Below are positions 16,520-64,000 of a DNA stretch of 64,000 nucleotides, one piece after another. The DNA comes from Candidatus Omnitrophota bacterium (lineage in GTDB: Bacteria > Omnitrophota > Gorgyraeia > Zapsychrales > JANLHA01). The position numbers were made by a program, and so were the translations under genes. How positions within the stretch are numbered: the stretch's first letter is position 1; the number at the start of each line of letters is the position of its first letter. The stretch lies in assembly GCA_030688425.1 (NCBI GenBank), contig JAUYIB010000007.1, positions 29,854-93,853 on the forward strand. Reading direction: 5' to 3'. The notes below the pieces were generated by a model. It saw only the letters and a program-made list of their open reading frames with translations. It searched no databases and was not told where the DNA came from.

Positions 16520-17326
16520 ATGAATTTAGAGAATAAAAAACAGATGGCCATCATCGCCCTGGCTGTGGGGCTCGGTCTCATGGCTGCGGTCTTGACCGGG
16601 AACCATATCCAGGAGAGCATCAAGCAGGAAACGGCCCGCCTTTCCCAGGAATATGAAACCAAAAAAATTGCCCCCCTGGTTAGCGAGATCGATTCCCTGC
16701 GCAAGGAGATGCAGAAGCTGGCGGCCCAGCAACAGCAGATCGCCGCGCAAAAACCTTCAGAGGCGGTCAAGACAGAGACCCCGTCGGTCCCCAAGTCTTC
16801 TTTGGCGCTGCGCACACCGGCCGGCAAGCGTGCCTATACGATCAATCTCGACTCTTTGTCGGCCGTCGGGGGGTTGATCAATCCCGGAGATTACGTAGAC
16901 ATCATTGGCCATTTGGACATGCCGGACCCCGTCAACAGCAAGACGGAAAACATCACGGCCATGGTTTTTCAAAACATTTTGCTCCTGGCGGTTGGAACCA
17001 ATCTTCAGGAGCCGGGCGGCTATGAAACACAGATGGCGTCCGGGGCCCTGAAAGTGACGCTCGCGCTGAGCCCGGAAGAGTGCAGCTTGATGTCTTTTAT
17101 TCAGAAGCATGGCCGGATGCAGTTTATTTTACGGGCCCCGTCCGAGACGGAGACCCAGATGATGCAGGCGGCCAGCTGGAGTTCTCTGGCGGACTATGTG
17201 TTTGAGAAGCAGGGCACGGAGCTTGTGATTCCTCGCGGGAAGGTCAATCTCGAACCGGTCAAGACCGAAGGGAAGGAAGAGGTCAAGCCTTTCATTCAAA
17301 TTTTCAGGGGAGGCCGTGAGCTGTAG
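16520..17326 (+). CDS. cpaB: Flp pilus assembly protein CpaB/RcpC
   Basis: 268-aa ORF with an N-terminal TM, a coiled segment and an RcpC-type region (KRAYTINLDSLSAVGGLINPGDYVDIIGH...NILLLAVGTN). Confidence 0.85.
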   Translation: MNLENKKQMAIIALAVGLGLMAAVLTGNHIQESIKQETARLSQEYETKKIAPLVSEIDSLRKEMQKLAAQQQQIAAQKPSEAVKTETPSVPKSSLALRTPAGKRAYTINLDSLSAVGGLINPGDYVDIIGHLDMPDPVNSKTENITAMVFQNILLLAVGTNLQEPGGYETQMASGALKVTLALSPEECSLMSFIQKHGRMQFILRAPSETETQMMQAASWSSLADYVFEKQGTELVIPRGKVNLEPVKTEGKEEVKPFIQIFRGGREL

Positions 17327-17384
17327 TCGCGGCGGCCTGAACTTCACGCACCTTGAGGATTTTTAAACATTGGAGTCGTTATTT

Positions 17385-19319
17385 ATGAAAAGGAATTTAT
17401 CTTTTTGGAAGGCGCTGACAGGGGCCGTTGTTCTGGGGGGATTTCTTTTTAACGGCGGTTCCCGCCCCGTCCTGAGTTATGCCCAGATGAAAGAGGAGGT
17501 CGACACAAAGACCGAGACGGAGGTCTTTATCTATAAGGGCGACCTCATGGTCGTTAAGGTCTACTCCTTAACCCGGATCGCGGTGGTCAACCCGGAAATC
17601 GTTGATATCGCCAACGCGGACGTCAACGAAATCCTACTGGTTGGACAGACGTTGGGGTCCACTCCGATTTATATTTGGGATGAGCTTGGCAAGCGGCAAA
17701 TCCTGGCTACGGTTTTGAAGGAAGATCTGGATGTTTTGATTTCCAAGCTCAAGCGGATGATGGAAGTGACGAATATCACGGAAGTTTCCCTGGAAAAAAA
17801 TAATTATGAGGGTAAGGTGGTCGCTTCCGGCATGATTCCGGAGCGGAAAAAGTCGGCCTGGGATGAAATTGTCGCCCGGTATAGCGACAGCCTGATCAAT
17901 TTGACAACGGAGGAAAAGAGGGAGGATCTGATCCAGATCGATGTGCAGATCACGGAATTGAGCACCACCCTTGCCAAGGAATATGGGTTTGACTGGGTTT
18001 CCGGAAGCGACAGCGGTTTGGCCATCACCTATCCGGAAACATTGCCGACTTTTAGCGGGGATTATCCGGCGGATTGGTACAGGCTTGGCGATTTTAATCG
18101 GGTAAGCGAGTTGGCCCTAACCGTGAGCATGTTGGAGGCCGAAGGCCGGGCCAGGTCCATATCCAGGCCCAGCTTGGTTGTTCAAAGCGGGCAAAGCGCC
18201 AGCGTGCAAGTCGGCGGCCAGATCCCGACCCGCACCACGACAACGGCTGTCGGCGGCGGCAGCGTCCAGGAGAATGTGGCTTACCAATCTTACGGCGTCA
18301 GTTTCACAGCGGTCCCGACCATCAAGGACGGAAATAAAATTGATTTGACGATCAGCGTTACCGTGAGTGATATCGACGCTTCAAACGCCGTCGGCGATGA
18401 CGTGGCGTTTGTCAGCCGGTCGACCAATACGAAGGTCCTCTTAGACGACCGGCAGACAATTGTTATTGCCGGTTTGATCAAGCAGAACCGCAGCGAGAGC
18501 CTTAAAAAGATCCCGTTTCTGGGGTCCATCCCCATCATCGGGGCATTGTTCCGCAACCGTTCTACGCCATCCGCGGACCTTGACCAGGAACTTGTGATTA
18601 TCATCACCCCGACGATTATTCAGCGGGGGGAAGAAAACCCATTTAAGAAAAAAGATGTGGCGGCTTCGGTGGTCCCGCAACCAGCTGCGGAACCCGCACC
18701 CGCCACCCTTTCTCCTGGGGAGGAAGACCGCTTCTTGGAAGTCAAGCCGGACGTGGTCACTGACGCGGTGGCGGAGGGCGAAGACTTGTCGCCGGAGATG
18801 GGCGAGGAAAATCTCTCCTTGAAAGACGCCGTAAAGCCGGCGGAAGCCCCGGCTTTTGACAAGAAACCCGCTGCGGTTCTTCCTTCCTCTGTCGAGGCCC
18901 CCGCGGCAGGCGATTCTTCTGCGGACGACATGGCCGTTGAACAGGAAGAATGGATGGTTGAAGCCCCGGGCCAGGACCCGGCCGGCCAGAAGGCCGTTAC
19001 CGATTATGTCAAATCCGTCCAGAAGAAAATTTCAGAATCAATTTCTTTTCCGTACGAAGCCAAGGAAAAGGGGTGGGAGGGGACGGTGCACCTGACCATG
19101 ACCCTCTTGAGCGACGGCACCCTGCAGGACGTTGACGTGAAGCAGTCTTCCGGGCACATGATATTTGACAATGACGCGAAAAACACGGCCCAAATCCTGG
19201 CGCCGTTCGATCCGTTTCCCGCCGAAATGGACCTGGAAGAGATCGTTGTGACGGTCCCCATTGTGTACAGCCAGAACGCCATGCTCGACCAGATGGAAGA
19301 ATCTCCTCTCGAGGAATAA
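17385..19319 (+). CDS. cpaC: CpaC/RcpA secretin with C-terminal TonB_C-like domain
   Basis: It has a signal/TM segment and an N-domain (VVKVYSLTRIAVVNPEIVDIANADVNEILLVG). The secretin core reads IPFLGSIPIIGALFRNRS...ELVIIITPTII. A Pro/Ala/Glu-rich linker spans ~18640-18990. The TonB_C-like tail is FPYEAKEKGWEGTVHLTMTLLSDGTLQDVDVKQSSGHMIFDNDA. Confidence 0.85.
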   Translation: MKRNLSFWKALTGAVVLGGFLFNGGSRPVLSYAQMKEEVDTKTETEVFIYKGDLMVVKVYSLTRIAVVNPEIVDIANADVNEILLVGQTLGSTPIYIWDELGKRQILATVLKEDLDVLISKLKRMMEVTNITEVSLEKNNYEGKVVASGMIPERKKSAWDEIVARYSDSLINLTTEEKREDLIQIDVQITELSTTLAKEYGFDWVSGSDSGLAITYPETLPTFSGDYPADWYRLGDFNRVSELALTVSMLEAEGRARSISRPSLVVQSGQSASVQVGGQIPTRTTTTAVGGGSVQENVAYQSYGVSFTAVPTIKDGNKIDLTISVTVSDIDASNAVGDDVAFVSRSTNTKVLLDDRQTIVIAGLIKQNRSESLKKIPFLGSIPIIGALFRNRSTPSADLDQELVIIITPTIIQRGEENPFKKKDVAASVVPQPAAEPAPATLSPGEEDRFLEVKPDVVTDAVAEGEDLSPEMGEENLSLKDAVKPAEAPAFDKKPAAVLPSSVEAPAAGDSSADDMAVEQEEWMVEAPGQDPAGQKAVTDYVKSVQKKISESISFPYEAKEKGWEGTVHLTMTLLSDGTLQDVDVKQSSGHMIFDNDAKNTAQILAPFDPFPAEMDLEEIVVTVPIVYSQNAMLDQMEESPLEE

Positions 19320-19384
19320 GCGGACCTGCGGTTCAACCAAAATCCGCCGCGACGGAAAAGCCGTTGCATTTTTTGAAAGCCCCC

Positions 19385-21550
19385 ATGAGCGCAAGAACCA
19401 TTACGATTTTCGGCAATAAAGGCGGTGTAGGGAAGAGTTTCGTGGCCGTGAACCTGGCCGCCGCCCTGGCCTCTTCCGGACGGAAGGTCCTGCTGGTGGA
19501 CCTTGATCTTCAGGCCGGCCAGGACATGGCGCGGATGCTCAACGTCGCCCCGCCGCATTGCCTGGTCAATCTCCTTTCGGAGATCGAGAAAACCGATGAC
19601 CCGGAGATCATCAAGAAATTTGTCACCTCCCATTCTTCGGGCCTGGATTTTCTTCCCGCCATTCTCCAGACCAAGCAGGTTGGACACATCACCCCGGACA
19701 ACGTCAAACTATTTTTCAAGAAGGCCCCGGCCATCTATGAGTTTATTATCGTGGACGGTGGCAATCTGTTCAGCGAAACCTTGCTGACCGTTCTGGATCA
19801 TTCCAGTTTGATTTTGCTCGTGGCCACCCCGGACATCCTCGCCGTATATCAGTTGAAGTGGTGCCTGGATTTGCTCCAGAGCATGCATTACCCGATGAAA
19901 ATGGTCCAAATGGTCCTTAACCGGGCCGAGAGTTACGGCGGGGTGCGGTGGCAGGAGGTTCACACGGCCCTGTCCGTCGAGATTTTTGCCCGCATTCCGT
20001 CCGACGGCAAGGTGGTCGGCATGGCCCTCAACCGCGGGGTTCCCTGCGTCATCGACAGCCCCAAGAGCAAGGTGGCCGAGGCGTTTTTGAAAATGGTCAC
20101 GGACCTTAAGAGAGAGGATATCTACACTCAGCCGACGGAAATCGCCCGCGTTCGGACGACGGAAAAGATCGACCAGCAGGCGGGGCAGTTCTGGGAAAAA
20201 TTCGGCGTCGGGCAGCAGGGCGTTAACCCCCTGGCCAAGCTTTACGGCAAGGAAGAGGATGATGAAGTCAGCGGCTTGAAAAAGAAAATCCATGAACGTC
20301 TGGTCGCCCGCCTTCATGTCGAGGACATGACCCCGGAAACGCTGAGCGATCCTCAAAAAGCTGCGGAGCTCAAGGCGTCGGCCCAGCAGATCGTCGGCAA
20401 TCTCTTGGCGGAGGAGAAAGGCGGGATCATTTCGTCTCATGAGGAAAGGTCCCGGCTGGTCAAGGAGATCGTCGACGAGGCCCTGGGGCTAGGGCCGCTG
20501 GAAGAATTCCTCGCCGACCCGGACGTGACCGACATCATGGCGAACAACCGTAACGAGATTTACGTTGAGAAGTCCGGTAAACTGATCCTGACCAACCGCC
20601 GATTCATTTCCAATCAGCAGATGCGCTCGATCATTGACCGCATCATCGCTCCCCTGGGCCGCCGCATCGACGAGTCCGTGCCGATGGTCGACGCCCGTTT
20701 GCCCGACGGTTCACGTTTCAACGCGATCATCCCGCCTCTGTCCTTGAACGGACCCATGATCACGATCCGTAAATTTGGCGTGGAGCGCCTGGAGGCGGAG
20801 GAGTTGCTGGAACAATACCAGAGCTTGTCCCGCGCCATGTTTGATTTTTTGAATTGTGCCGTTCTCGGCCGCAAGAACATCATTGTTTCCGGGGGGACCG
20901 GCGCCGGCAAAACCACGCTTTTGAATGTCATCTCTCAATTTATTCCCGATGGCGAACGCATCCTGACCATCGAGGACGCAGCGGAATTGCGATTGAAAAA
21001 AAGTCATTGGGGTCGCCTGGAATCCCGTCCGCCAAACGTCGAAGGCAAGGGCGCCGTCACGATCCGCGACCTGTTTGTCAACTCTCTGCGTATGAGGCCT
21101 GACCGGATCATCATCGGCGAGTGCCGCGGCGGCGAGGTCTTGGACATGCTCCAGGCCATGAACACCGGCCACGACGGGTCCATGACCACCCTGCACGCCA
21201 ACTCCACCAAGGACGCGCTGGTGCGCTTGAGCTCCATGATTCTGCTGAGCGGGATCGAGCTGCCGGTGCGCGCGATCAATGAAATGATCGCCACCGCCAT
21301 CGACGTGCTTGTGCATATCGCTCGTTTTTCCGACGGATCAAGAAAGATCACCGGGATCACCGAGGTGATCGGGCTGACGCCCGATTTCCAGGTGGACGTC
21401 AAGGATATTTTTATGTTCGACCCCAAAGGGCGCGACGAGGACGGGCGCATCCTCGGGGAATACAAGCCGACGGGGTATGTCCCCAAGTGTTATCACGATT
21501 TTGTGTCCATCGGCCTCAAAATCGATAAAAATCTTTTCACCAAGACATAG
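19385..21550 (+). CDS. CpaE(TadZ)-like ParA/MinD ATPase fused to CpaF(TadA) secretion ATPase
   Basis: The N-terminal part reads [31 protein letters not shown], a ParA/MinD fold. The C-terminal part has Walker [21 protein letters not shown] and the His box [14 protein letters not shown], a T2SS-E/VirB11-type ATPase. Both lie in one 721-aa frame from ATG 19385. Confidence 0.9.
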
Positions 21551-21559
21551 TCATTCTCC

Positions 21560-21907
21560 GTGCAGATCCTCAATCAAACCCGCAACACGACCGTCGCCGA
21601 AAACGCCGTGATGGCCGATACCGCTTTCTCCCGCCTGAAAGGACTCCTCGGTCGATCGGAGATCGGGTCTCGCGAAGCCCTGGTCATCACGCAATGCCGC
21701 TCGATTCACATGTTTTTTATGAAGTTTGCAATCGACGTCATTTTTGCCGACAGGCATGACCGCGCGGTGGGGCTTGTTTCCCGGATCAAGCCGTTTTGCA
21801 TGAGTCCGTATTTTTTTCGTGCGAGTTATGCCGTGGAATTGCCGGAAGGGGCTATCGCATCAAGCCGGACCCAGAAGGGCGATCAGCTTGTTTTTGTGAA
21901 GGGGTAA
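21560..21907 (+). CDS. DUF192 domain protein
   Basis: 115-aa ORF with a GTG start. RLKGLLGR...IHMFFMKFAIDVIFADRHDRAVG...YAVELPEG resembles the DUF192 (COG1430) pattern. Confidence 0.7.
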   Translation: MQILNQTRNTTVAENAVMADTAFSRLKGLLGRSEIGSREALVITQCRSIHMFFMKFAIDVIFADRHDRAVGLVSRIKPFCMSPYFFRASYAVELPEGAIASSRTQKGDQLVFVKG

Positions 21908-21916
21908 CGGGAAGGG

Positions 21917-22189
21917 TTAAACCAGATCCTTGGGATCAATGTCTCCGGCGGCGCGATTGACTTCGTCAATCCAGCGGCGGCAAAAGCGGCAGAATTTGGC
22001 TTCCAGCAGAATCTTTTTCCCGCAGAAAATACAACTCTTCTTATCTACGCTTGGGAACTCCATGTTGACTGGTTCGTCGATGATGAACTGGGCGCAATGG
22101 GGGCACTTTAATACCTTTTCGGTTAAAGGTTCGTAGCAGTAGGGGCATTTGAGCATGTTGTTCTCCGCCAAAGCGCGTGGTTTACGCAA
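21917..22189 (-). CDS. Double zinc-ribbon protein
   Basis: 90-aa ORF with CPYC...CPHC and CIFC...CRFC pairs. It is the only minus-strand gene inside the Tad region. Confidence 0.6.
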   Translation of the reverse strand: MRKPRALAENNMLKCPYCYEPLTEKVLKCPHCAQFIIDEPVNMEFPSVDKKSCIFCGKKILLEAKFCRFCRRWIDEVNRAAGDIDPKDLV

Positions 22190-22368
22190 TTGATGTATTC
22201 TTATTTTATTATACTATCCTGTGTCCTGTTTTGTCATGGAAATATCATTTTTCTTTCTGGATGGCGGATGATTTTTCAGGAGATAAATCATTTTTGTAAA
22301 AAAAAGTGTGATATACTGAAGGCGTAAAAATGTCCAAACTGAGTTTTTTCGCAGAAGGATTCCTTTAA

Positions 22369-24123
22369 ATGGGTGTTGTATATAAAGTTACGGAAAACCT
22401 TGTTGCTTTTATCGTTGATCGCAAAAGAAGCAATCCGCGATTGAGTTGCCGTGGCCTCGTGGACATTATCCATGAAAATTTTCAGGTTAAAGTTTCTAAA
22501 TCCTCCGTGAATGCCGTTTTTCAGGAATTTCAGTTGAGCAGCCCCGTGGGACGAACGCCAAGGGGGGGGAAGGGAGGGAAGAAATTTCAGATCCCAGCAG
22601 AGAGGAAAAAGCACCTCTTTGGGCCTGGTTCGCCTCAAAAAGCGGATGCTGTCATAGATATTCCTGCAACAAAGGGTCCTGGCAAGTCAACCGCAAGTGT
22701 CCATGGCCATTCTCCGCAGAAGCCCCCCAGTGCTCTTAAAACGGAAAAAAATTCCGGCATCGTTGTAAAAAGCGAAGGCTTTAGTCAAGTCTGTGATCAC
22801 GCAGGATGCATTTTTCTTAAAGCCGCTGAATGGGCTGTTTTTGACCGGCCGATCCTGGCGCACATTGCCCAAGATGCGGGGTGGGGGACTTCCATCCCGG
22901 AATTCGAAAAGATTTGCGAAATTTTACCATATTTGCAAACATTTGGAATTAATGATGTTGCAGATATTCAAGGCTATGGCGGGCAAGGTTTGTGGGCTCT
23001 CCATGGCTGCAAGTGGCCTATCCCCGCCGAGCAGTTTAAGGAGGCGATTACGGCTTTGGGCGAGCCCAGATCTCTGGCGTTGAAGCTGTCCTGCGACCTC
23101 CCGTATTTCTATACCTCCATATCATCCGTCCGTGTTCAGCTGAAGAATTTAATGGAAATTTACTTGGATGGGGAATTTATTTCCGCGTGGGAACAGCCGA
23201 TGATCCCTCGGCCGGCCACTTTGCCTGTTAACAAAATCTTATCAGATGTCACGGCCCGGTTTTTAAATGCGGCATACCCATGCCTCATTTTCTCTCTTCC
23301 TTGGCAGGCGGCACCCATGGACGCTTTTAGTGCCTTGGTCAAGGCATTTGATCAGGAAGAAGGATACGACATTAGTAGCATTTCTCTAATCGATTCCGCC
23401 AATCAGGAAATCGCGGCATTCAGCATGATTCCGCAAAAGAGACGCATGTTTATTGCGGGAATTTGGCCTTTTCATGAAGATTTTGATGCGCTGTCTTCGT
23501 TGGGTAATTCTGGGACTATGGCACCGTTAACCTTAACGCCCTGGGGACGAAAGGTGTATTATCGGGACGTTTCGGTTGAAAAAAAATCAAAAATTCATCA
23601 AGTCATTGCAAAAAAGAGACTTATGGTTGTTTTTGGCCAATCTGCAGGCGAACCGCTTGTCTTTCTCTTGTCGAATGCTCCCCAAGCCGTTTCCACCAGG
23701 GATATTGTTACTGCATTTCTTCAGCGATGGCCAGAATTGGGTGATAGTTCATTTGTGAAAGACCGTTCGGCGATTTCGTGTCTAACAAACCATATTTGGC
23801 AAAAGGAAATCGAGCACGGCATAACATCATCAATATCAAGTATTTATGAGAGCGCTAGTGTTTATGAGGTTTTTCAACGAATGATGTCTTCGTTCGTTAC
23901 TGTATTTGTAAGGACAGTATTTACAGATGTTTATGATAGGCATGGGTTTGATTTTTCGGCATATTTTTCCCAAAGGGGATCTGTCCGGGAAACAGAAAAT
24001 GAATTTATATTAAAATTTAATGGGGCTCCAGATGATCACTTCCGTTTTGCAGTTAAAAAAATAAATGAGACGGGAATACATAATTATAGGAACAAGAAAT
24101 TAATATTAATACTTCCGGAATAA
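22369..24123 (+). CDS. Hypothetical protein, N-terminal HTH-like segment, degenerate IS4/IS1634-type transposase-like C-terminal signature
   Basis: 584-aa ORF. The N-terminus (LSCRGLVDIIHENFQVKVSKSSVNAVFQE) looks like a transposase-type HTH. LLSNAPQAVSTRDIVTAFLQRWPELGDSSFVK resembles the lvTN...eiv.Y..RW.IE...K motif of DDE transposases, with altered spacing. The gene is visibly more AT-rich at its 3' end. Confidence 0.45.
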   Translation: MGVVYKVTENLVAFIVDRKRSNPRLSCRGLVDIIHENFQVKVSKSSVNAVFQEFQLSSPVGRTPRGGKGGKKFQIPAERKKHLFGPGSPQKADAVIDIPATKGPGKSTASVHGHSPQKPPSALKTEKNSGIVVKSEGFSQVCDHAGCIFLKAAEWAVFDRPILAHIAQDAGWGTSIPEFEKICEILPYLQTFGINDVADIQGYGGQGLWALHGCKWPIPAEQFKEAITALGEPRSLALKLSCDLPYFYTSISSVRVQLKNLMEIYLDGEFISAWEQPMIPRPATLPVNKILSDVTARFLNAAYPCLIFSLPWQAAPMDAFSALVKAFDQEEGYDISSISLIDSANQEIAAFSMIPQKRRMFIAGIWPFHEDFDALSSLGNSGTMAPLTLTPWGRKVYYRDVSVEKKSKIHQVIAKKRLMVVFGQSAGEPLVFLLSNAPQAVSTRDIVTAFLQRWPELGDSSFVKDRSAISCLTNHIWQKEIEHGITSSISSIYESASVYEVFQRMMSSFVTVFVRTVFTDVYDRHGFDFSAYFSQRGSVRETENEFILKFNGAPDDHFRFAVKKINETGIHNYRNKKLILILPE

Positions 24124-24127
24124 AGAC

Positions 24128-24155
24128 TTGACACCAAAGGGTGGCGTGTTATACT
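24128..24155 (+). promoter_or_regulatory. Near-consensus sigma70 promoter (TTGACA-16-TATACT) ahead of the pilin array
   Basis: TTGACA at 24128-24133 and TATACT at 24150-24155, about 225 nt upstream of the first pilin start. Confidence 0.55.
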
Positions 24156-24381
24156 CTTACCTGATGTATTGTGTCCTCACAATACTGTGAGAGTTCTTTT
24201 TCATTTGAAGTTATCCCCGCCTTTGGCGGGGTTCTTCCACAAAAACCCTGAAAGCTGTCCAGGGACCCTGTGGATGCCGGAAAGGAAAACCTTCCGGCAA
24301 TAAAGCCCGATGTGCAGACTCTACTCCAGAGGTTTTTGGGGGTGGGCACGAATCATCTGGGCACGGGAGGTGCAGGCACGA

Positions 24382-24543
24382 ATGAGGCATTTTCAAAATC
24401 CGAAAAATCACGGTCAAAACCTAATCGAATATGCCCTTGTCGTTGCCTTAGTGGCTTCTGCGATGCTGGCCATGAGCACCTACGTGTTTCGGTCTGTCCA
24501 GGCAACCCAGCAGGTGATTCAAAACGAGTACGCAAATCAGTAG
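24382..24543 (+). CDS. flp: Flp-family pilin 1
   Basis: 53 aa from ATG 24382: MRHFQNPKNHG/QNLIEYALVVALVASAMLAM... This is the class III signal G/xxxxEY followed by a hydrophobic helix. GGGAGG lies upstream. Confidence 0.8.
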   Translation: MRHFQNPKNHGQNLIEYALVVALVASAMLAMSTYVFRSVQATQQVIQNEYANQ

Positions 24544-24594
24544 GTTATCATATTCAAGAATTGCTATGAAGAGAACTCTAAGGAGGAGTCTATA

Positions 24595-24804
24595 ATGTTT
24601 AAACACCTGAAAAGAAAGAAGAAAGGGCAAAGCACCCTGGAGTACATCATCTTGGTGACGGGTGTTATTGCCATCCTGATTGTCTTCTTGAATCCAAAAA
24701 CCGGCGTTTTTAACACGGCATTCAACAAGACGCTGTCATCTGGTACAAACGGCATGGAGGACCTTGCCAATCGTTTGGCAAACTCCCGTGCGAAGTCGCC
24801 GTAA
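24595..24804 (+). CDS. Flp-like pilin 2
   Basis: MFKHLKRKKKG/QSTLEYIILVTGVIAILIVF... AAGGAGG lies upstream. Confidence 0.8.
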   Translation: MFKHLKRKKKGQSTLEYIILVTGVIAILIVFLNPKTGVFNTAFNKTLSSGTNGMEDLANRLANSRAKSP

Positions 24805-24860
24805 GCGCCAGGAGCATGATAAGCATAAAATCGTTAAATTGTCATATGGAGGTGTGATCA

Positions 24861-25241
24861 ATGTTTAAAAAATTGCTTAAAAACAAAAAGGCCCAACAGA
24901 CAGCGGAATATGCGCTTTTGATTTCGCTCGTCGTTGCGGCTATTATCGCGATGCAGACGTATGCACAACGTACTATCCAGGGCCGTATCCGCGATGCGTC
25001 GAAATACCTGACGGATCAGACCAGCGCCCTTGGCGCCACGTCGCAGTATGAACCTTATTATCTTGAAACGAACTACCAGGTTCTGCGCGATGATGAAACC
25101 GACGAAATCCAGGACAGGAGAACTGACAACAGCGGGTTGTTCCGGATGGAAGACAACTCCGTCAGAACCCGCGCTAGAGACGGTTTCCAGGAATCGAAAT
25201 ACGGCACACAGTTCGGTAACGGGCTCATTAACGGAATCTAA
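24861..25241 (+). CDS. Long Flp-like pilin 3
   Basis: MFKKLLKNKKA/QQTAEYALLISLVVAAIIAMQTYAQRTIQGRIRD... 126 aa, with GGAGG upstream. Confidence 0.75.
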   Translation: MFKKLLKNKKAQQTAEYALLISLVVAAIIAMQTYAQRTIQGRIRDASKYLTDQTSALGATSQYEPYYLETNYQVLRDDETDEIQDRRTDNSGLFRMEDNSVRTRARDGFQESKYGTQFGNGLINGI

Positions 25242-25298
25242 TGTTCTGTTTGTTAAACAGCAACAGAAGAGCCGTTTATTATTAAGGAGGAAAGGTCA

Positions 25299-25622
25299 AT
25301 GTTTAAATTCTTGAGAAAAAAGAAAGGGCAGAGCACCCTTGAGTATGCTGTCTTGATCATCATTGTCATTGGTGCTCTCCTGTCCATCCAGGTGTACATC
25401 AAGCGCGGCGTGCAAGGCCGCCTGAAGAGCGCCGCCGACGACATCGGCGACCAGTACTCTCCTGGCAACACCAACGTCCGTAAAACCACGAGAGTTCAGA
25501 GCAACACGGCTGAAACTTTCGTCAACGGTGTTACGAAATCCAAGTTGTTAGCGGATGAAAAGACGTATGTGGAGCGCAACTCGGAAATCCTGAATGCTGA
25601 ACAGGAGTTCTGGGGCAAATAA
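25299..25622 (+). CDS. Long Flp-like pilin 4
   Basis: MFKFLRKKKG/QSTLEYAVLIIIVIGALLSIQVYIKRGVQGRLKSAADDIGDQYSP... 107 aa, with AAGGAGG upstream. Confidence 0.8.
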   Translation: MFKFLRKKKGQSTLEYAVLIIIVIGALLSIQVYIKRGVQGRLKSAADDIGDQYSPGNTNVRKTTRVQSNTAETFVNGVTKSKLLADEKTYVERNSEILNAEQEFWGK

Positions 25623-25646
25623 CACGTTGCTGCTGTTGGTTTAAAA

Positions 25647-25689
25647 CATGGCTTGCTTGGAGGAATCTCCAGGCAAGCCATGTTTTTTT
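25647..25689 (+). terminator. Rho-independent terminator after pilin 4
   Basis: A 16-bp stem CATGGCTTGCTTGGAG / CTCCAGGCAAGCCATG with loop GAAT is followed by seven T. Confidence 0.8.
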
Positions 25690-25811
25690 ATAGCCCGTGA
25701 TGGCTGATAATTTATGTTTTTGGAGAGATTGTCTGTCCATAAGCCAATAAAAATGTTATAATTTAATTAGAAATATTATTTATATTGTTATGTAGTCTTT
25801 AGGATAAAACA

Positions 25812-26180
25812 ATGTTCCGGTCGCTTCGCCAAAATAAAGGGCAAGGGTTTGCCGTTCAATACGCCATTACTTTTTTCTTTGTTGTGGGGGTCCTGACGGG
25901 CATGACGGTGTATTTCAAGCGGACGATCCAGGGGCGCATTCGGGACGCCACGCTCTATTCGCTGATGACTGTGGACAATGTTTACAACGGTAGAATGTAT
26001 ACGCAATACGAACCTTATTATACGAACACGACCTATTATCGGTTAACAGATGTCGCAGAAGTCAAAACCTGGACAGGAACCTTTAACACGAGCATTGACG
26101 TTTTCAGCGATGCCGGTAGCGAATCAAGGTCCGCGATGAGCGGGGTTAGCAACCAAGCATCCCCTCGTATGGGCGATTAG
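25812..26180 (+). CDS. Divergent Flp-like pilin 5 (Glu replaced, one-residue insertion)
   Basis: MFRSLRQNKGQGFAVQYAITFFFVVGVLTGMTVYFKRTIQGRIRD... It has the family architecture but reads ..AVQY where the others have ..EY. An extended -10 TGTTATAAT lies upstream in an AT-rich spacer. Confidence 0.7.
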   Translation: MFRSLRQNKGQGFAVQYAITFFFVVGVLTGMTVYFKRTIQGRIRDATLYSLMTVDNVYNGRMYTQYEPYYTNTTYYRLTDVAEVKTWTGTFNTSIDVFSDAGSESRSAMSGVSNQASPRMGD

Positions 26181-26191
26181 TTTAAACGTTT

Positions 26192-26536
26192 ATGACAATG
26201 CGTAAAGCATATCGGAGAGGGCAGACATTCATTGAATATACGCTCCTCCTTGGGGTTCTTGTTTCCATCCTCGTGGCGATGACCCCTTTGGTGCGGCGCG
26301 GGGTTCAGGGGATGGTCAAGATAGTTGTTGATCAGGTGGGGACGCAAAAAGACGCCGAGCAGGTCGGAGGCACATCGGGTTATCTCATCAACACGACGAT
26401 GGAAACAGATTCGTATCGGGAGACCCTGAAGACGGAATATCTGGGAGACACGGGATATTGGACAACGTCGGATTGGACGGCGACAAACTCGGAAGTCCAC
26501 TTGAATTTGGGTTTTACGGAGAAACGCGGGAATTGA
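26192..26536 (+). CDS. Long Flp-like pilin 6
   Basis: MTMRKAYRRG/QTFIEYTLLLGVLVSILVAMTPLVRRGVQGMVK... 114 aa. Confidence 0.75.
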   Translation: MTMRKAYRRGQTFIEYTLLLGVLVSILVAMTPLVRRGVQGMVKIVVDQVGTQKDAEQVGGTSGYLINTTMETDSYRETLKTEYLGDTGYWTTSDWTATNSEVHLNLGFTEKRGN

Positions 26537-26568
26537 CGGGTTTCTCAGATAGACGGGAGAGGTGAGGC

Positions 26569-26889
26569 ATGAACATCCTGAGACGCGGCCGCAGGGGCCA
26601 GAGCACCCTGGAGTTTGTGACTTTACTCATTATTATCATGGGAGTCTTTATCGCGGCCGGAAACTATTTCAAACGAGGCATCCAGGGCCGGTGGAAAGCT
26701 TCCATCGATGAGCTGGGGGATCAGTATGATCCCCGGTTGACCAACACGTCTATCAAGCATATTTTGGTTTCCAATACGGAAACCCGGATTACCACCATCA
26801 GCGCGGAGGGCGGGTTGTGGTCGCTCCGGGACGACATAACCAATTCGCTGGAGATCAAAACCGGGGGAACAACCATCGGCGCTTTTTAA
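26569..26889 (+). CDS. Long Flp-like pilin 7
   Basis: MNILRRGRRG/QSTLEFVTLLIIIMGVFIAAGNYFKRGIQGRWKASIDELGDQYDP... 106 aa. Confidence 0.8.
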   Translation: MNILRRGRRGQSTLEFVTLLIIIMGVFIAAGNYFKRGIQGRWKASIDELGDQYDPRLTNTSIKHILVSNTETRITTISAEGGLWSLRDDITNSLEIKTGGTTIGAF

Positions 26890-26927
26890 TGCAGATTGCA
26901 AAGAAACAGAGATAATCCCGCCAGGTG

Positions 26928-28421
26928 ATGAAGATATTAAAGAAAATTGGATTCACAACTCCCCGCCAAGCGCAAACCGCTTCCGAGCTCGCGATCTTCG
27001 GAGCCGTTCTGCTTTTTGTCATTGGCCTTATCGCCCGCGCCGGCATGAGTACCAGCCAGACCATGAATCACCAGCTCAAGGCCATGCGGACCGCCATGAC
27101 ACAGTCGTTCAATTATTCGATGCGCCGCGAAGCCATGTCCCGGAACACGGCGTCGGTGATCGTTATTGAAGACAGGCTTTCGGTGGACGCCGGCAGCAAG
27201 TTCGGCACGCGGGACCGTATTCCGTTCGTGGCCAGCGGCGGCGCTGCCTTCTCCAATCAGTTTTTTCAAGAATTGGCCTATGGGGAAGAATTTAATCTCC
27301 CGGTCGCGGATATTATCATCAACGGCCAGCGGTTTCCCTTCCGCATGGGGGGGTTCCGGACGGTGGCCACCCACACCTGCAGCACCATCGGCGGTACGGC
27401 TCCACCCAATTGGGAGTCGGCGTGTTACAACATAGGGGCGGGGGATCAAGGCTGCGCGGTGTTTTATAAACAGCAGATCCGGTATGCGTCAAATGCCGCT
27501 TGGCATGATCGTGCCGTTAGACCCTGCGGCGGCGCCTGCTATCCGTATGACGACCGGTTTGATCTGGATCACAATCGCATCCCCGAGAGGAAAACAGACG
27601 TTCCGGATGTTGATGTCCCCGCTGGACAATTCAATCTCGGCCTTCCTTACGTGGAAAGTTTTCGCTCCCACTTCAATTGGCAGTGGGTCCTGGTCCCGGG
27701 GCTTTTCGATGCGGCGAGAACAGGAAGCATTTTGACGGACATTTCACCTGCCAGGAACCGGCTTGACCCGACGGATCAAATGGGGACTCTCGCGAAAGAA
27801 GACAGCTTTGACGTGGACGGCGATCTCAAGGACGAGCTTGTTTATTCATGGACGGTCGCGGGAAAGAATTCGGAGGGCAATGTCATCATTCCCGCGTGCA
27901 CTGCATTTACGGGGGTTGTCACTTCCGTCAATGTCCTGGACAGCCAGAGCGGTGACATTGACGCCACCATCAATGACCGGGACGAACGCATGGGGATGAG
28001 GGCGACCGGGCTGGAGGATGAAATCCAGATGTTTTCTTTCACCCGCGAGGGCACATACTACCAAATCCACGAAGGCAAGCTGTTTGAGGCGTCTCCGCTC
28101 GGCGCGCACGGGGGGCAATTCATCCGGAACACCAGCCGCCAGGACCATGTGGATATCGTTCAAAGGATTTTTAAAATGAGCAACGATACCGGCCGGTTTT
28201 GCAGCGGAGGGGGCCCTGCGAACTGGGCGGCCGCGTGCTCCGCAAGCCGCGGCAAAGACGGGCGGTGCGGCCTTGACAATCCCGTGGAAGCGTGCAACAA
28301 CTGTTTTTCACCGGCCAAGGTTACGCTGACGTGTTTTGACTCGGCCCAAAGGTTGTTGTTTATCCGCAGCCGCATCAGTGATCTTCGCGGGCGACGGTGG
28401 GTTACAAGGATGGATTTGTAA
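26928..28421 (+). CDS. Large TadE/TadG-like pseudopilin
   Basis: 497 aa. The N-terminus ...PRQA/QTASELAIFGAVLLFVIGLI matches the TadE-type prepilin-like leader plus hydrophobic helix. The rest has no motif I recognise. Confidence 0.65.
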   Translation: MKILKKIGFTTPRQAQTASELAIFGAVLLFVIGLIARAGMSTSQTMNHQLKAMRTAMTQSFNYSMRREAMSRNTASVIVIEDRLSVDAGSKFGTRDRIPFVASGGAAFSNQFFQELAYGEEFNLPVADIIINGQRFPFRMGGFRTVATHTCSTIGGTAPPNWESACYNIGAGDQGCAVFYKQQIRYASNAAWHDRAVRPCGGACYPYDDRFDLDHNRIPERKTDVPDVDVPAGQFNLGLPYVESFRSHFNWQWVLVPGLFDAARTGSILTDISPARNRLDPTDQMGTLAKEDSFDVDGDLKDELVYSWTVAGKNSEGNVIIPACTAFTGVVTSVNVLDSQSGDIDATINDRDERMGMRATGLEDEIQMFSFTREGTYYQIHEGKLFEASPLGAHGGQFIRNTSRQDHVDIVQRIFKMSNDTGRFCSGGGPANWAAACSASRGKDGRCGLDNPVEACNNCFSPAKVTLTCFDSAQRLLFIRSRISDLRGRRWVTRMDL

Positions 28422-28473
28422 GGCGGCGGGAAGGCCGGCAACTCATAAAGGACGATGGTAAGGCGGAATTTTT

Positions 28474-28752
28474 ATGTTTAGAGCGCTTCGACGTCAAAGA
28501 CGGTTTTGGAGTTTCCAACCCCGGCATAGCTCAGGCCAAGCCATGCTGGAGTTTTCCTTTTGCATGATCGCGACCGTTATTTTGCTTTTGGGCATGATCA
28601 AAATATTTGTCTGGTGCGGGAAAGACCTTGTGGCCCGCCGTAAGGCGCATGAAAATGTTCTCCGACAGGGGACCCCGGTCGGAATCCGTCCGGTGTTTTA
28701 TTATTCGACGCGCATGGGCGCAGCCGTTGACAGCAACATCTTCGGCAATTGA
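28474..28752 (+). CDS. TadE-like pseudopilin
   Basis: 92 aa. ...HSSG/QAMLEFSFCMIATVILLLGMI carries the same G/Qxx(x)E[FY] leader logic as the pilins. Confidence 0.7.
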   Translation: MFRALRRQRRFWSFQPRHSSGQAMLEFSFCMIATVILLLGMIKIFVWCGKDLVARRKAHENVLRQGTPVGIRPVFYYSTRMGAAVDSNIFGN

Positions 28753-28803
28753 TCTTTGCTCGCTCCCGGCGGATATGTCCGGACTCTACAGAGGAAGAAT
28801 GAC

Positions 28804-32922: not shown

Positions 32923-33023
32923 CGCGACCGGCGGCCCGGGAGGAAGATGTCTCCGGGCGGTAAAATTTTGCGAGCCAGGAATTGATTTGCCGAAAGAATG
33001 AATTTATAATGAAGGGGACGGGA

Positions 33024-36107: not shown

Positions 36108-36161
36108 TTAACGTCCAATCTGATTAATGTCCAATCTAATTGTTTTAATGTCCATTCTGGT
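36108..36161 (+). repeat. Three tandem direct copies of TAA[CT]GTCCA[AT]TCT
   Basis: TAACGTCCAATCT starts at 36108, TAATGTCCAATCT at 36124 and TAATGTCCATTCT at 36145. The spacings are 16 and 21 nt, in an AT-rich non-coding region. Confidence 0.65.
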
Positions 36162-36446
36162 GCTATTCCTGGTCGGAGAAAAACTGAAATCAAGCCGTGA
36201 GATATGTTCTTAAATTAATGAATAATTTTGTGGTATCTAATGATTGATCCGATATTTTGCCAGATGGTGCTGGGGCTGTGTGGACAAACCTTCCGTATCT
36301 TTATGGGTGATTTCTCGACGGAAAATGACTGGAAAAAGGAAGCGCTTTCAAAAAAATAAGTAAAAAAAATGCAATAAAAATTTTTAAAATCTGTCCAATT
36401 GAGACGTAAGTCGTTGGTATATAACAGGATATTTTCTAAAAAAAAT

Positions 36447-36475: not shown

Positions 36476-36481
36476 ATGTTA

Positions 36482-36610: not shown

Positions 36611-36641
36611 CATTTTACCCTCTTACCTTCTTCGCAGTTTA

Positions 36642-36884: not shown

Positions 36885-36887
36885 TTT

Positions 36888-57800: not shown

Positions 57801-60800
57801 GACATCCAGAGAGCCCTGGTCGAATTTGATCTCGCTGCCGACAAGTCCGTCTTTAAGAAAAAGGCCGAGCCGGCCGCATACGCTTCCGCGGGCACCGGCA
57901 GAACCATGGGCGCGTCCGAGAAATCAATGTTAAAAAAGCTGACGCCCGTTGCTCCGGCAACTTCCATGGCTGGCCTGCAGACGGCTGCAAAACCTCAGAC
58001 GTTGAGTGTCCAAACAACAACGGCAGATGTCAGTTCCGCCGCCGGCCAGGTGAAGGTGCCGGACATCAAGGCCCCGCCTGCCGGCGTTCAGCCGTCCGCT
58101 GTTCCTCCGGCCGCCCAGATCAAGGCCGCCACCCCGCTTCTTCCTCCGGGTCTGACCCCGGCGATGCTCCCGCTGAATTTAACCCAGGCCCCCAAGTCCG
58201 ACGCGCAGAAGATCGCTTCCGCCCAGCGCCAGGAAAGCCAGAGCCCGTCTTCCTTGCTGATCCGTCCGAGCGTTCCGGAAATTCCGCGCACCCAGTCCCC
58301 TGTTGTGGCCATGGCCTCGGCCGCGCCGCAGATGCAGTCGGTGAAAGGGGCGGCGGTCGCTTCCAGCAACATCTCTGACACGACCGGCCGCGGCAGCCAG
58401 GCGCCTTCGGTGGAACGCCAGACGTCGTTTGTGTCTGCCCAGCTCACCGATCGTTACGGCAACGTTATCGGATCCATGCAGAAGGGCATGAGTTCCACTT
58501 CCGCTCAACCCGGGACGGTCGGCCAGGTCGTCATGGCTTCCCAGAAGGAAGGCGCTCAGCCGCAGCCTGGGATCGACATTTCCAAAGATATGGCCAGCGT
58601 TTTCGGATTGAGACCTGTCGAGCCCGGCGAGCTGTCTTCCATCACGAACCCGCAGGCGTCCAAGGCCACGGCCGCGAGAGACCGGGAGTTGACCTCTCCC
58701 AGAGCCAAGCAGCAGAGAGAGCTGACCAGCGTCCGCGGGAAAGCGAAGACGGCCAAAGATAATTCCATGCTGTCCAAGAAGACAGTCGCCGCCGGAATGT
58801 TGGCCGGGGCTTTGGCGATGAACACACTGGGCGCGGATTTGGATGCCGTCCGTCGCACGACAATTTTTGAGAGACCCACGATCACAAAAGGAACGAATGA
58901 CGCAATCCCGCTGATCGTCAATTTCGGAAGACAAAAAGTCGACGTCTCGGTCATGTACAACTCAAGGAAGAGCATGGATGTTAATGATCCTGCGACCGTC
59001 AAGAAATTGGAGCGTGTCGCCGATGTCTTTGTGCAGGTCCGTGCCTTGGCCCCGGAGGCCTTTCATCTTATTAAGACGATCAGGCTCGATAACACCGATC
59101 TCCAAACCGCACAGGCAGGCCCGGATGACGGTTCCATCGATGTCCATGTGGATGACCTTTTCAAGCTCAACCCCACCAACCGCATGGAACTGGCGATGGG
59201 CCTTAAGGACGGCGAGGAAAAAGCGTTGATCACTGTGATTCATGAATTGGGTCATTTGGTCCAGGGGACCATGACCAAGGCCGAGCAGCGGGAGTGGTCG
59301 AGGTTGTCCTTCCCGAAGGCTACCGCCGGCGATTGGGCCGATGAGGCGTTTGGCCAGGCTTATGCAGATGTTGTGCTGAGAAGAAAAACATCGGTGGATT
59401 ATTATTATCAGCGCGGCAAGCGGGAGATCAAAGATAAAGATCGTGCCAGGGCCGAAAAAGAAAACGCGAAAATGCGCGCTTTCGTTGGCCGCGTCGTTGA
59501 TCGCCGCAAGGCCGCATGGGAAAAACGTTCGGCCTTTAATAATATCCAAAATGATACGGTCGGATTTGTTCAGATCCCGTCGGACATCTCCTGGGGGGAA
59601 GTCAGCCCCCGTATCGGGTCCCCATCGGCTATCGGCGACAAGTCGATGCTGTTGTCAAAGAAGCTGGCCGCCATTAAGAATCCGATATTCGAAGAAGCCG
59701 GGTATCGCATCAATCCGCAGACGCTGTCCATCGAACCGGTTAAATTCAATAGTGATACCGAGAGACGTCAGGCGGTTTCCGCGAAGATTTCCGGCATTTT
59801 GGCCGACCCCAGCCGTTTGACAGCAATTCCAAAGGCCAAGGGCGACGCTGCCAAGGTTGAGACGATCTTAAGGATGGACGGGTATCAACAGCCGTCCGGC
59901 GAAGCTGTCCCGAGTTATATGGAAGTCGTTTCGGTTGACAACACCATGTATGTGCGAATTCCGGCCGTGGACAAGAAAACGGGAGACAGATACGTCAAGG
60001 CGAACGCCGTGGAGCTGGTCGGGTTGTTCAGAAATCTGAGCGGCCAGGAACTCGAAAGCCGTTCGAATTATTCCGGCCGCGAACTTCAGCCCGACACGTA
60101 CTGGGCGCCCAAGAAAGAATACGTCACCAAGCACCAGCCGTATTATCAAGAGAAGATCCACCCCATGGTCGCCCAGGCCATCGGCGCTTCCATCGAAGGC
60201 GGGCAGGTGACATCGCAGGAAGTGGATGTCCTGGATATAGGCGGGCATAACGGTGCGTTTATTGAATCGTTGAACAAGCAGTTGCCGAAAATTTTCCCTG
60301 ACCGGAAATTCAAATTTGAGCTGGTCGAGCGCAATGAGGGCAGTGTCAAGGCCGCCGAGGCCAAATTCAAGGGTGTGAAGAACGTGACCGTCCAGAAGCC
60401 GACGGACTTGACCCAGAAGGGTATTTCCGCCACCGGGCCGAAGGACGTGATCACCGCCATCGGCGTTTTGAACGAGCAGGTCATGTCGGCCGATGATGCA
60501 AGAAGCTTAGCGAAGCAGGCGTATGACACCTTAAAGCCGGGCGGGGTCTTCATCGTGACCGGCGGGACCCGCACGCATTTGACCGTCAGCGACCTGCAGT
60601 CCATGGGCTTTGAGGTCCGCAACACGAGCATCCCGAGCAACGTCGCCATGTTTGAAGGCGTTGAGGATTTGATGATCGCCGTGAAGACCGCCCCCGCTGC
60701 CCGTAGCAGCGCTTTGGCCCGTGCGACAACCAAAGCTGCCGACAAGTCGATGTTGAAGGACATGCGCCTTGCCAATCCGGCGGCGGAAAAGGCGCGCGTT

Positions 60801-64000: not shown

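Follow-up and report, generated by a model that had tools for sequence, protein, structure and literature searches.

A conserved Tad-type pilus cassette and neighbouring giant gene in an Omnitrophota genome

The DNA analysed here, a 64,000-nucleotide stretch referred to as the window, derives from an Omnitrophota genome and carries the conserved two-module arrangement of that phylum, in which a giant gene comes after a Tad-type gene cassette. This linkage is genuine and highly conserved, and it has already been described. The available text of West-Roberts et al. 2023 (bioRxiv 10.1101/2023.11.21.568195) reports that giant genes with an N-terminal C39 domain are preceded by a conserved T2SS-like locus, and the same locus appears in the available parts of Seymour et al. 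2023 and Nielsen & Lui 2026 (10.64898/2026.06.07.730766). The reports of Omnitrophota Tad pili and giant ORFs mentioned in the sequence-only reading are real. The analysis establishes the gene content and taxonomy of the locus and the conservation of its synteny, catalytic residues, promoter, and terminator. It is probable (roughly 0.7) that the pilus or secretion module and the giant protein are kept together for one contact-dependent lifestyle. This proposal of a single contact-dependent apparatus draws on the conserved synteny together with published proteomics of V. archaeovorus; according to the available text of Seymour et al. 2023, the Tad complex is expressed in this organism and giant-ORF peptides are threefold up in attached cells.

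The lineage of the window was guessed to be Omnitrophota-like, and homology searches agree. Although most matches carry no source name, all source-named homologues of TadC, the giant N-terminus, and a 584-aa cassette protein are from Omnitrophota/Omnitrophica. The TadC homologues number 1,608 and bear the JGI label 'tight adherence protein C'; the best are 65-83% identical, and the source-labelled ones are Omnitrophota. The malate dehydrogenase (Mdh) shares 71% identity with its counterpart in an Omnitrophota-type MAG in which the synteny is the same. Record titles in the genome scan described below include many 'uncultured Planctomycetales' and a few other taxa. The region is origin-proximal, with yidC, dnaA, dnaN, gyrB, and gyrA present.

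Pfam domains and a check of the ORFs confirm a Tad cassette upstream of the giant ORF, as had been read from the sequence. The cassette contains the following features:

15408-16514, plus strand: PPIase (Rotamase_2) with a SurA-like N-terminus and a membrane anchor (Pfam; start codon uncertain)
16520-17326, plus strand: CpaB/RcpC (Pfam RcpC, E 1.4e-19)
17370-19319, plus strand: secretin (RcpA/GspD-like) with a C-terminal TonB_C domain (Pfam Secretin E 1.9e-42, TonB_C E 2.3e-14; NCBIfam)
19364-21550, plus strand: CpaE/TadZ (ParA/MinD-like) fused to the CpaF/TadA ATPase, 728 aa (Pfam T2SSE E 1.8e-58, CbiA/ParA/AAA_31)
21560-21907, plus strand: DUF192 protein (Pfam)
21917-22189, minus strand: double zinc-ribbon protein, 90 aa (Pfam Zn_Ribbon_1/DZR)
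22369-24123, plus strand: 584-aa protein with an N-terminal helix-turn-helix (HTH), rest of the fold unmatched (homologues, AF2)
24128-24155, plus strand: putative pilin-operon promoter, TTGACA, 16 nt, TATACT, TG-extended TGTTATACT (sequence)
24382-24543, 24595-24804, 24861-25241, 25299-25622, 25812-26180, 26192-26536, and 26569-26889, plus strand: seven tandem Flp-type pilin genes (G/xxxxE(Y/F) motif)
26925-28421, plus strand: pseudopilin-like protein, 498 aa, 12 Cys (N-terminal hydrophobic pilin-like segment)
28474-28752, plus strand: pseudopilin-like protein, 92 aa (sequence and synteny)
28756-32922, plus strand: giant pseudopilin-like, TadG-like membrane protein, about 1,372-1,388 aa, 55 Cys (sequence and synteny)
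32982-33443, plus strand: eighth Flp-like pilin, Cys-rich, 9 Cys (G/xxxxE(Y/F) motif)
33544-34398, plus strand: TadB, 284 aa (Pfam T2SSF; 48-73% identity across loci)
34581-35459, plus strand: TadC, about 292-293 aa (Pfam T2SSF)

The cassette had been described as a full Tad set beginning at 16520. The machinery genes cpaB, secretin, cpaE-cpaF, tadB, and tadC are indeed present, but a Pfam search of the 64-kb window found no prepilin peptidase of the TadV/CpaA (A24) family. The true start also lies earlier, at the PPIase gene, which is the first cassette gene and occupies the same slot in loci L083, L084, and L085. Four members (the Rotamase_2 PPIase, DUF192, the minus-strand zinc-ribbon gene, and the 584-aa gene) were absent from the sequence-only reading. 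The same three loci retain the secretin-TonB_C fusion, the DUF192 slot, and a minus-strand zinc-ribbon gene in its slot, this being the sole minus-strand gene of the cassette. The top NCBIfam model for the TadZ-TadA fusion is the TadA family TIGR03819, with a score of 306 bits that falls below the 373-bit equivalog cut-off. TadB and TadC are two adjacent single-domain T2SSF proteins, as in the split platform of Tad systems, and alignment to homologues of about 293 aa places the likely start of TadC at 34581 rather than at the mechanical-ORF start of 34464.

All 8 pilin-like and 3 pseudopilin-like genes of the sequence-only reading were found where it had placed them. The class III signal motif G/xxxxE(Y/F) is present in all eight Flp-like genes. 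The Flp pilins match Pfam Class_IIIsignal at 29.3 bits (cut-off 23.7), while the Flp_Fap score of 22.8 bits is below its cut-off of 32.2; of the eight, only flp1 and flp2 have the size usual for Flp. The seven-pilin array is syntenic in more than 40 loci, and the entire pilin and pseudopilin gene order is syntenic across loci. The 498-aa pseudopilin-like protein is conserved at 24-41% identity and matches no Pfam family; the 1388-aa protein is found in nearly all loci at 23-35% identity and matches no Pfam or NCBIfam family. Both are Cys-rich, as had been noted (12 and 55 Cys, respectively). L083 and L084 carry a box similar to the pilin-operon promoter at the corresponding position.

Similar to the Tad/Flp pili of Aggregatibacter, Caulobacter (Cpa), and Bdellovibrio-like predators, the locus encodes RcpC/CpaB, an RcpA-type secretin, TadZ/CpaE, TadA/CpaF, TadB, TadC, Flp pilins with the G/xxxxEY motif, and TadE/F/G-like pseudopilins. 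In contrast to these systems, TadZ and TadA are fused, the secretin carries TonB_C, there are eight pilin paralogues, and the pseudopilin-like proteins of 498 and 1,388 aa are Cys-rich. The locus further differs in its extra PPIase, DUF192, zinc-ribbon, and 584-aa HTH genes, and in containing no TadV/CpaA.

The 584-aa HTH gene is a fast-evolving, fixed member of the cassette whose slot is kept in L083-L085, and its source-named homologues come from Omnitrophota only. The protein collection also includes a 209-kb contig that encodes the window's own copy of the protein. The AF2 model of the protein has a pLDDT of 78, and among PDB structures it matches only a Pax6-like HTH. Upstream of the gene, at 22309-22317, is an extended -10 box, TGATATACT. 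The protein is a candidate regulator. A reading of this ORF as an IS/transposase insertion, prompted by low GC and a weak HTH_32 match, was rejected because the gene is fixed in the cassette of distant species.

The second module begins downstream of TadC:

36888-64000, plus strand: giant ORF, at least 9,037 aa, open to the window end
37245-37847, plus strand: C39 (double-glycine type) cysteine peptidase domain of the giant protein (Pfam E 1.4e-10)
60231-60560, plus strand: class I SAM-dependent methyltransferase domain of the giant protein, aa ~7782-7891 (Pfam Methyltransf_12, 33.6 bits, cut-off 30)

The giant ORF starts just after a stop codon at 36882-36884 and runs for 9,037 codons without a stop. 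On Logan contig SRR13727534_7920, the same gene encodes 22,241 aa or more. The gene therefore covers a minimum of 27.1 kb in the window and of 66.7 kb on the Logan contig, and contig ends cut both. For comparison, the available text of West-Roberts et al. 2023 describes a set of giants exceeding 30,000 aa and 90 kb, while Seymour et al. 2023 applied a threshold of >20 kb in the part available.

Conservation of the linkage in relatives, a check proposed with the sequence-only reading, was examined in a one-genome-per-species collection. The scan returned 280 candidate stretches encoding a TadC relative, and adjacency was counted in the 47 species-level loci whose sequence continues for 5 kb or more past TadC. 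A same-strand, open-ended, homologous giant ORF follows TadC in 44 of these. The giant ORFs share an N-terminal module consisting of the membrane anchor and C39, with the first ~350 aa being 30-52% identical to those of the window. The three exceptions without an adjacent giant gene are L026 and L057, which have genes of ordinary size after TadC, and L052, in which neither a long ORF nor a match to the N-terminal module was found downstream of TadC.

Conserved gene order could also be explained without a direct link between the modules, as the inheritance of two independent envelope systems in a slowly rearranging, origin-proximal region. This is an improbable account. CN-hydrolase and malate dehydrogenase genes also precede the cassette in L083 and L085, so that synteny with distant species reaches unrelated housekeeping genes; consequently, adjacency alone is no proof of functional coupling. 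The three species that have the cassette without an adjacent giant gene, as well as the independent promoter on the giant gene described below, are likewise compatible with simple inheritance. However, the cassette-then-giant order holds down to 56% TadC identity and outlasts more than tenfold variation in the length of the spacer between TadC and the giant-gene promoter, which takes up inserted DNA. The upstream housekeeping flank is less constant than the order of the cassette, as illustrated by L084, and the same rare extended -10 box is present at both the pilin operon and the giant gene. These observations argue against inherited order as the explanation.

In the giant protein, a TM helix (aa 44-69) precedes the C39 domain and three hydrophobic helices (aa 333-406) follow it. 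The triad of the domain, Cys171, His256, and Asp272, is invariant in 22 sequences. The AF2 model of the domain has a pLDDT of >90, and Foldseek matches it to LahT150 (6mpz), PCAT1, and ComA (entries 6mpz, 6v9z, and 3k8u). The fold is the same as in the C39 domains of PCAT1, ComA, and LahT (Foldseek E 3e-6, TM-score to target 0.70), and the triad is conserved. On the basis of these residues, the peptidase is predicted to be catalytically intact. Unlike the C39 domain of PCATs, it is not fused to an ABC transporter, no such domain being found after C39 in the giant protein with Pfam and NCBIfam; instead, it sits between the TM helix and the hydrophobic helices at the head of the giant. The peptidase domains of PCATs are, as far as is known, cytoplasmic, whereas the positive-inside rule suggests a periplasmic location for that of the giant protein. 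C39 peptidases cleave after Gly-Gly. The pilin leaders of the cassette end in K/R/H-G or K-A rather than Gly-Gly, making the C39 domain an unlikely stand-in for the absent prepilin peptidase.

The TM helices in the first 9,037 aa are confined to aa 44-69 and 333-406, plus one weak segment at 2128. Because the helix count after C39 is ambiguous and the TM helices are N-terminal only, the bulk of the giant protein could lie on either side of the membrane. The giant protein contains only 3 Cys in 9,037 aa (0.03%), compared to a median of 0.15% in 43 homologous giant stretches and 0.97% in the housekeeping proteins of the window. This extreme Cys poverty fits an extracytoplasmic protein, and an almost Cys-free giant protein is thus paired with Cys-rich pseudopilins. 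The SAM-dependent methyltransferase domain would be odd in an extracellular protein and counts against a surface reading.

Beyond these two domains, little of the giant protein is recognizable. A Pfam search of 1,000-aa pieces at E 0.5 detected C39 and the methyltransferase only, with glycosyltransferase, DEAD, and HD matches below usable strength. NCBIfam matched the C39 region only, and phmmer against PDB sequences gave no match for either half of the protein. The sequence-only reading called the protein modular. The protein is not repetitive: self-BLAST gave one weak off-diagonal match, and modular repeats were rejected.

The giant gene is preceded by two further elements:

36407-36485, plus strand: predicted giant-gene promoter, with the box TAAcTnnTTG..AAcaagAT, an A-tract, a -35, and an extended -10 TGTTATACT (iterative nhmmer, consensus scan)
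36486-36610, plus strand: leader of ~125 nt with an intrinsic terminator, hairpin at 36584-36604 and T-run at 36605-36610 (RNAalifold)

Iterative nhmmer finds the promoter element as one same-strand match per locus in 46 of the 52 loci with a giant N-terminus. In these 46 loci it lies 33-808 nt before the giant start and 182-3,431 nt from TadC. Enrichment of TGNTATACT further supports the promoter. The giant gene is thus predicted to have its own conserved promoter and not to be co-transcribed with tadC.

The terminator-bearing leader is found in part of the clade only. In an RNAalifold analysis of 16 leaders, the terminator hairpin alone was recovered; it is 99% paired, with compensatory changes in 6 of its 8 pairs, and none of 500 shuffles reached the observed value. 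The body of the leader is unalignable, so no structured aptamer can be claimed. At the gathering threshold, Rfam identified tRNA-Glu only in the whole window, and a permissive search of 35400-36950 gave no match, indicating that the leader does not correspond to any riboswitch or sRNA described so far. The GGTAG arm of the hairpin was considered as an RfaH ops-like element, but this was rejected because the arm covaries with its partner.

Comparison with the published locus places the window within a known class. The available text of West-Roberts et al. 2023 describes a cassette of more than ten genes with gspD/E/F-like genes, rcpC, a Rotamase_2 PPIase, and class III signal peptides. The window shares with it the phylum, the gspD-like secretin, the gspE-like ATPase, the gspF-like TadB/TadC, rcpC, the Rotamase_2 PPIase, and the class III signal genes, as well as the orientation upstream of a giant gene with C39 near a signal or anchor sequence. 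In the available literature, pilus or secretion genes flank 13 of 14 giants. The giants of West-Roberts et al. are described as carrying numerous TM helices and a SecA_DEAD domain, with pilZ and sugar-import genes following downstream; the giant gene here is cut by the window end, and its methyltransferase content fits their 'Archaeovorin' class. The available texts of West-Roberts et al., Seymour et al., and Nielsen & Lui contain no mention of the promoter and terminator leader of the giant gene, the Cys contrast, or, among the cassette members, the 584-aa HTH gene and the zinc-ribbon gene on the minus strand.

West-Roberts et al. name the locus a secretion system in the text available. The cassette could instead be a T2SS-like machine devoted to exporting or assembling the giant protein, and not an adhesion pilus. 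A pseudopilus made of Flp-like and giant Cys-rich pseudopilins would then push the giant protein, or fragments released by C39, through the secretin. The near-obligatory cassette-then-giant order (44/47 loci) is in keeping with such a machine, as are an accessory set that an adhesion pilus does not usually have (a PPIase encoded first in the cassette, secretin-TonB_C, and three very large pseudopilins) and the near absence of Cys, which would be expected in a protein exported unfolded. We nevertheless consider this reading unlikely. The platform and ATPase are of the Tad type (split TadB/TadC, TadA family), and Pfam and NCBIfam gave no matches to the classical type II secretion components GspC/L/M, a single GspF, or GspG-K, with the GspE and GspD models far below their cut-offs. 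No secretin is known to pass a substrate the size of the giant protein, and the giant protein has membrane anchors of its own. Additionally, the available literature proposes that SecA-like domains in full-length giants drive their own export. A more elaborate version, in which the cassette is a dedicated exporter or assembler of the giant protein, C39 provides a processing step, and the 584-aa HTH protein switches on the giant gene through the promoter box and terminator leader, is very unlikely. If true, it would represent secretion machinery tailored to proteins tens of thousands of residues long, as opposed to a pilus that happens to have a giant gene as its neighbour.

The preferred reading remains two modules serving one contact-dependent lifestyle. 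Here we infer the joint function, the location of the giant protein, and the substrate of C39. The first module would be a Tad-type (type IVc) pilus or secretion machine, and the pilus may attach to, or pull on, a host or prey cell. The second would be the giant 'archaeovorin-like' gene under its own promoter, here with a terminator-bearing leader. The membrane-anchored giant protein may be displayed at the cell surface, or processed there by C39, and would then act on the envelope of the partner. A common contact-dependent lifestyle would explain why the two modules are retained side by side.

Omnitrophota are abundant, uncultivated, ultra-small bacteria that are probably predatory and for which a cassette with a giant gene is typical. 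The locus is the leading genomic candidate for their attachment or exploitation apparatus, to which the window adds an instance and not a discovery. Modest additions are the count of how strict the linkage is across species loci and the finding of a fast-evolving HTH protein as a fixed cassette member. Furthermore, the difference in Cys content that separates the pseudopilins from the giant protein offers cheap sequence evidence on the destination of the giant protein, while the conserved promoter, with the terminator leader found in part of the clade, provides a handle on how so long a gene is switched on.

The window opens with a typical origin-proximal set at 842-11452 (yidC on the minus strand; dnaA, dnaN, DUF721, gyrB and gyrA), and oriC may lie in the low-GC gap at 2431-3366. 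Read along the plus strand, these genes are followed by tRNA-Glu, four metabolic genes and then the cassette block, a long run of genes that all lie on the plus strand barring a single zinc-ribbon gene. The position past dnaA is comparable to that of the Tad locus of V. archaeovorus, which Seymour et al. 2023 place at chromosome 12,382-29,832. The sequence-only reading had described a Tad locus beside a giant ORF, and this observation is confirmed by Pfam, by the ORF listing and by a frame 3 that stays open to the window end. The machinery, eight Flp-like genes and three pseudopilin-like genes it named are present; the set is not full as claimed, as no prepilin peptidase was found among the genes of the 64-kb window. 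The cassette also begins earlier than described, at a PPIase gene, and holds three further genes that had been left out.

Machinery genes of the cassette.
15408-16514, plus strand, Rotamase_2 PPIase (Pfam)
16520-17326, plus strand, RcpC/CpaB (Pfam)
17370-19319, plus strand, secretin with a C-terminal TonB_C domain (Pfam)
19364-21550, plus strand, CpaE/TadZ (ParA/MinD-like) domain fused to a T2SSE ATPase in a single 728-aa protein (Pfam)
21560-21907, plus strand, DUF192 (Pfam)
21917-22189, minus strand, double zinc-ribbon protein of 90 aa
33544-34398, plus strand, TadB (T2SSF; Pfam)
34581 (probable start)-35459, plus strand, TadC (T2SSF; Pfam)

By its machinery, as judged from gene content, the cassette is Tad-type and not a classical T2SS, because it has a split TadB/TadC platform, an ATPase whose top-ranked NCBIfam model is the TadA family, and Flp pilins, and lacks GspC, GspL and GspM. 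Its peculiarities relative to Tad systems are the TadZ-TadA fusion, the secretin-TonB_C fusion and huge, Cys-rich pseudopilins. Both fusions are kept in three related genome loci (L083-L085). The zinc-ribbon gene, the sole minus-strand member of the cassette, has a minus-strand zinc-ribbon counterpart at that position in three distant species. Each of the eight Flp-like genes, found in a listing of shorter ORFs, encodes a basic leader and a G/xxxxE(Y/F) motif, and one of the eight passes the Pfam cut-off for Class_IIIsignal. Three pseudopilin-like proteins have 498, 92 and 1,388 aa, the largest with 55 Cys residues, and the pseudopilin-like proteins at 26925-33443 contain 2.4-5.9% Cys.

The lineage and the conservation of the adjacency were probed using TadC. 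The suggestion that the contig belongs to Omnitrophota holds, as every homologue with a source name among the best 120 of 1,608 (65-83% identity) is labelled Omnitrophota or Omnitrophica; 22 TadC homologues were aligned. A scan of one genome per species gave 280 candidate stretches encoding a TadC relative, from which 80 loci were taken with 10-kb flanks. Some of these come from records titled 'uncultured Planctomycetales', in which the same locus is present. The order of seven pilins, the 498-, 92- and 1,388-aa proteins, an eighth pilin, TadB and TadC is kept in nearly all loci. Of the 47 loci in which 5 kb or more of sequence lies 3' of TadC, 44 have a plus-strand frame that begins 0.3-4.3 kb past TadC and is open to the locus end, so the adjacency is conserved in relatives. 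What these ORFs have in common with the giant protein of the window is a module comprising the first ~350 aa (30-52% identity), past which similarity is mostly gone. The adjacent giant gene is absent in three loci: two (L026 and L057) carry genes of ordinary size 3' of TadC, and the third (L052) has no long ORF there and no match to the N-terminal module.

In the window, frame 3 contains 9,037 stop-free codons from a stop at 36882 to the window end, and in an 82.5-kb Logan contig (SRR13727534) the call for the same gene spans 22,241 residues and runs off the contig end, making this length a lower bound. An 80-aa ORF (36642-36884) lies in the same frame, separated from the giant ATG by a single TAA. 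Position 36888 is likely the true start and the 80-aa ORF probably non-coding, because homologues begin at a conserved MxxRLD. Although the protein had been called modular, it is non-repetitive. Pfam finds two domains in the 9,037 aa: aa 212-295 match a C39 peptidase, and aa ~7782-7891 a class I SAM methyltransferase. Searches against PDB sequences and NCBIfam add nothing to these. Asn-Cys-Gly (C171), Glu-His-Phe-Val (H256) and D272 are invariant in an alignment of 22 N-terminal homologues, so the catalytic triad is complete. An AlphaFold model based on this alignment has pLDDT >90 over most of aa ~140-320, and Foldseek matches the C39 model to the peptidase domains of LahT150, PCAT1 and ComA. 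The model also predicts a single long helix (44-69), with the basic stretch KSRFKTWMR on its N-terminal side; further on, aa 333-406 form three hydrophobic helices. How many helices come after the C39 domain is ambiguous, so the bulk of the protein may lie on either side of the membrane. Beyond the N-terminal region the protein is rich in Ala and Gly.

The 9,037 aa of the giant protein contain three Cys residues (catalytic C171, C1061 and C1067), in sharp contrast to the Cys-rich pseudopilin-like neighbours, and the median Cys content of 43 homologous N-terminal stretches is 0.15%, compared with 0.97% for the housekeeping proteins of the window. Such a low Cys content is a typical trait of proteins exported from the cytoplasm, though no proof. 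The methyltransferase domain (60231-60560) lies ~7,800 aa into the protein, and an enzyme requiring SAM fits poorly with a giant protein located wholly outside the cell.

The spacer between TadC and the giant gene is AT-rich, as described, yet its 1.4 kb are more than filler and hold a conserved promoter. Iterative nhmmer seeded with 36400-36640 returned exactly one same-strand match in each of 46 loci, out of 52 having the giant N-terminus (36407-36610 in the window; among the related loci, for example, L003:11036-11262 and L054:4816-5032). The conserved part comprises an upstream box (TAAcTnnTTG..AAcaagAT), an A-tract, a -35 element and an extended -10 (TGTTATACT). Between this -10 and the giant start there are 33-808 nt (median 292), and between it and TadC 182 to 3,431 nt; this variable distance from TadC and closer tie to the giant start indicate that the promoter belongs to the giant gene. 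Three copies of the extended -10 TGNTATACT are present in the 64 kb (0.21 expected), all on the plus strand.

Copies of TGNTATACT in the window.
22309-22317, plus strand, 5' of the 584-aa gene
24147-24155, plus strand, 5' of the first pilin gene
36477-36485, plus strand, 5' of the giant gene

Similar boxes occur in distant species in the pilin slot (L083 and L084) and in the slot of the 584-aa gene (L084). About 25 of the 46 promoter-bearing loci, including the window, have a hairpin (GGCTACC...GGTAGTC) with a T-run 105-200 nt 3' of the promoter. The hairpin is 99% paired, with compensatory changes in six of eight pairs, and no shuffle attains the observed value. Species whose promoter stands 33-90 nt from the start codon are without it, from which we infer a leader of the attenuator type and not an sRNA gene of its own. 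The leader body is unalignable between species, and Rfam gives no match for the region. The first pilin gene is likewise preceded by a 226-nt leader, with a GC-rich hairpin (CCCCGCC-TTTG-GCGGGG, 24214-24232) ~60 nt 3' of the pilin-operon promoter, a layout resembling that 5' of the giant gene. Boxes of the form (T/C)GTCCA(A/T)T cluster at the giant promoter and start, with three tandem copies upstream (36112-36156), one just 5' of the promoter element (36392-36399) and two inverted copies around the ATG (36837-36844 and 36899-36906). These may be operator sites; three exact copies are also clustered within yidC (1894-1947).

The 584-aa gene (22369-24123) has low GC and a weak HTH_32 match, features that hinted at an insertion. 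This origin was rejected in view of its fixed slot in three distant species, past DUF192 and the minus-strand zinc-ribbon gene and ahead of the pilins. Its homologues are 21-32% identical, indicative of fast evolution; the few source labels among them all read Omnitrophota, to which the protein appears confined. The model is confident (pLDDT 78, pTM 0.71), and its N-terminal helix-turn-helix has a Pax6-like PDB match, with no significant PDB match outside this region. The protein can be proposed, speculatively, as a candidate regulator of the cassette.

The reports of Tad pili and giant ORFs in Omnitrophota to which the sequence-only reading alluded do exist. West-Roberts et al. 2023 (10.1101/2023.11.21.568195) describe phylum-wide conservation of gspD, gspE, gspF, rcpC, a Rotamase_2 PPIase and small class III signal peptide genes, as well as full-length giants with C39 domains near the N-terminus. 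In Nielsen & Lui 2026 (10.64898/2026.06.07.730766), 13 of 14 giants have pilus or secretion genes at their flanks, and a C39 architecture cluster has 24 members. Seymour et al. 2023 describe Tad complexes and giant ORFs throughout the phylum. The locus is already in these three papers, and the window is therefore a further instance of it; the interpretation of the adjacency is supported, yet already published. A more radical and less likely explanation is that the cassette would export the giant protein. The sceptical explanation, that the adjacency is inherited synteny only, carries some weight, as synteny takes in genes just 5' of the cassette too, in two of the three species compared (CN-hydrolase and malate dehydrogenase in L083, the latter at 71% identity to that of the window; malate dehydrogenase in L085). 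However, the cassette-giant order persists despite variable spacers, and published expression ties both modules to host-cell contact: as summarised by Seymour et al. 2023, V. archaeovorus expresses its Tad complex in co-culture, and giant-ORF peptides are up threefold in attached cells. The best-supported reading is that the cassette and the giant gene are two modules, transcribed separately, that serve one contact-dependent lifestyle.
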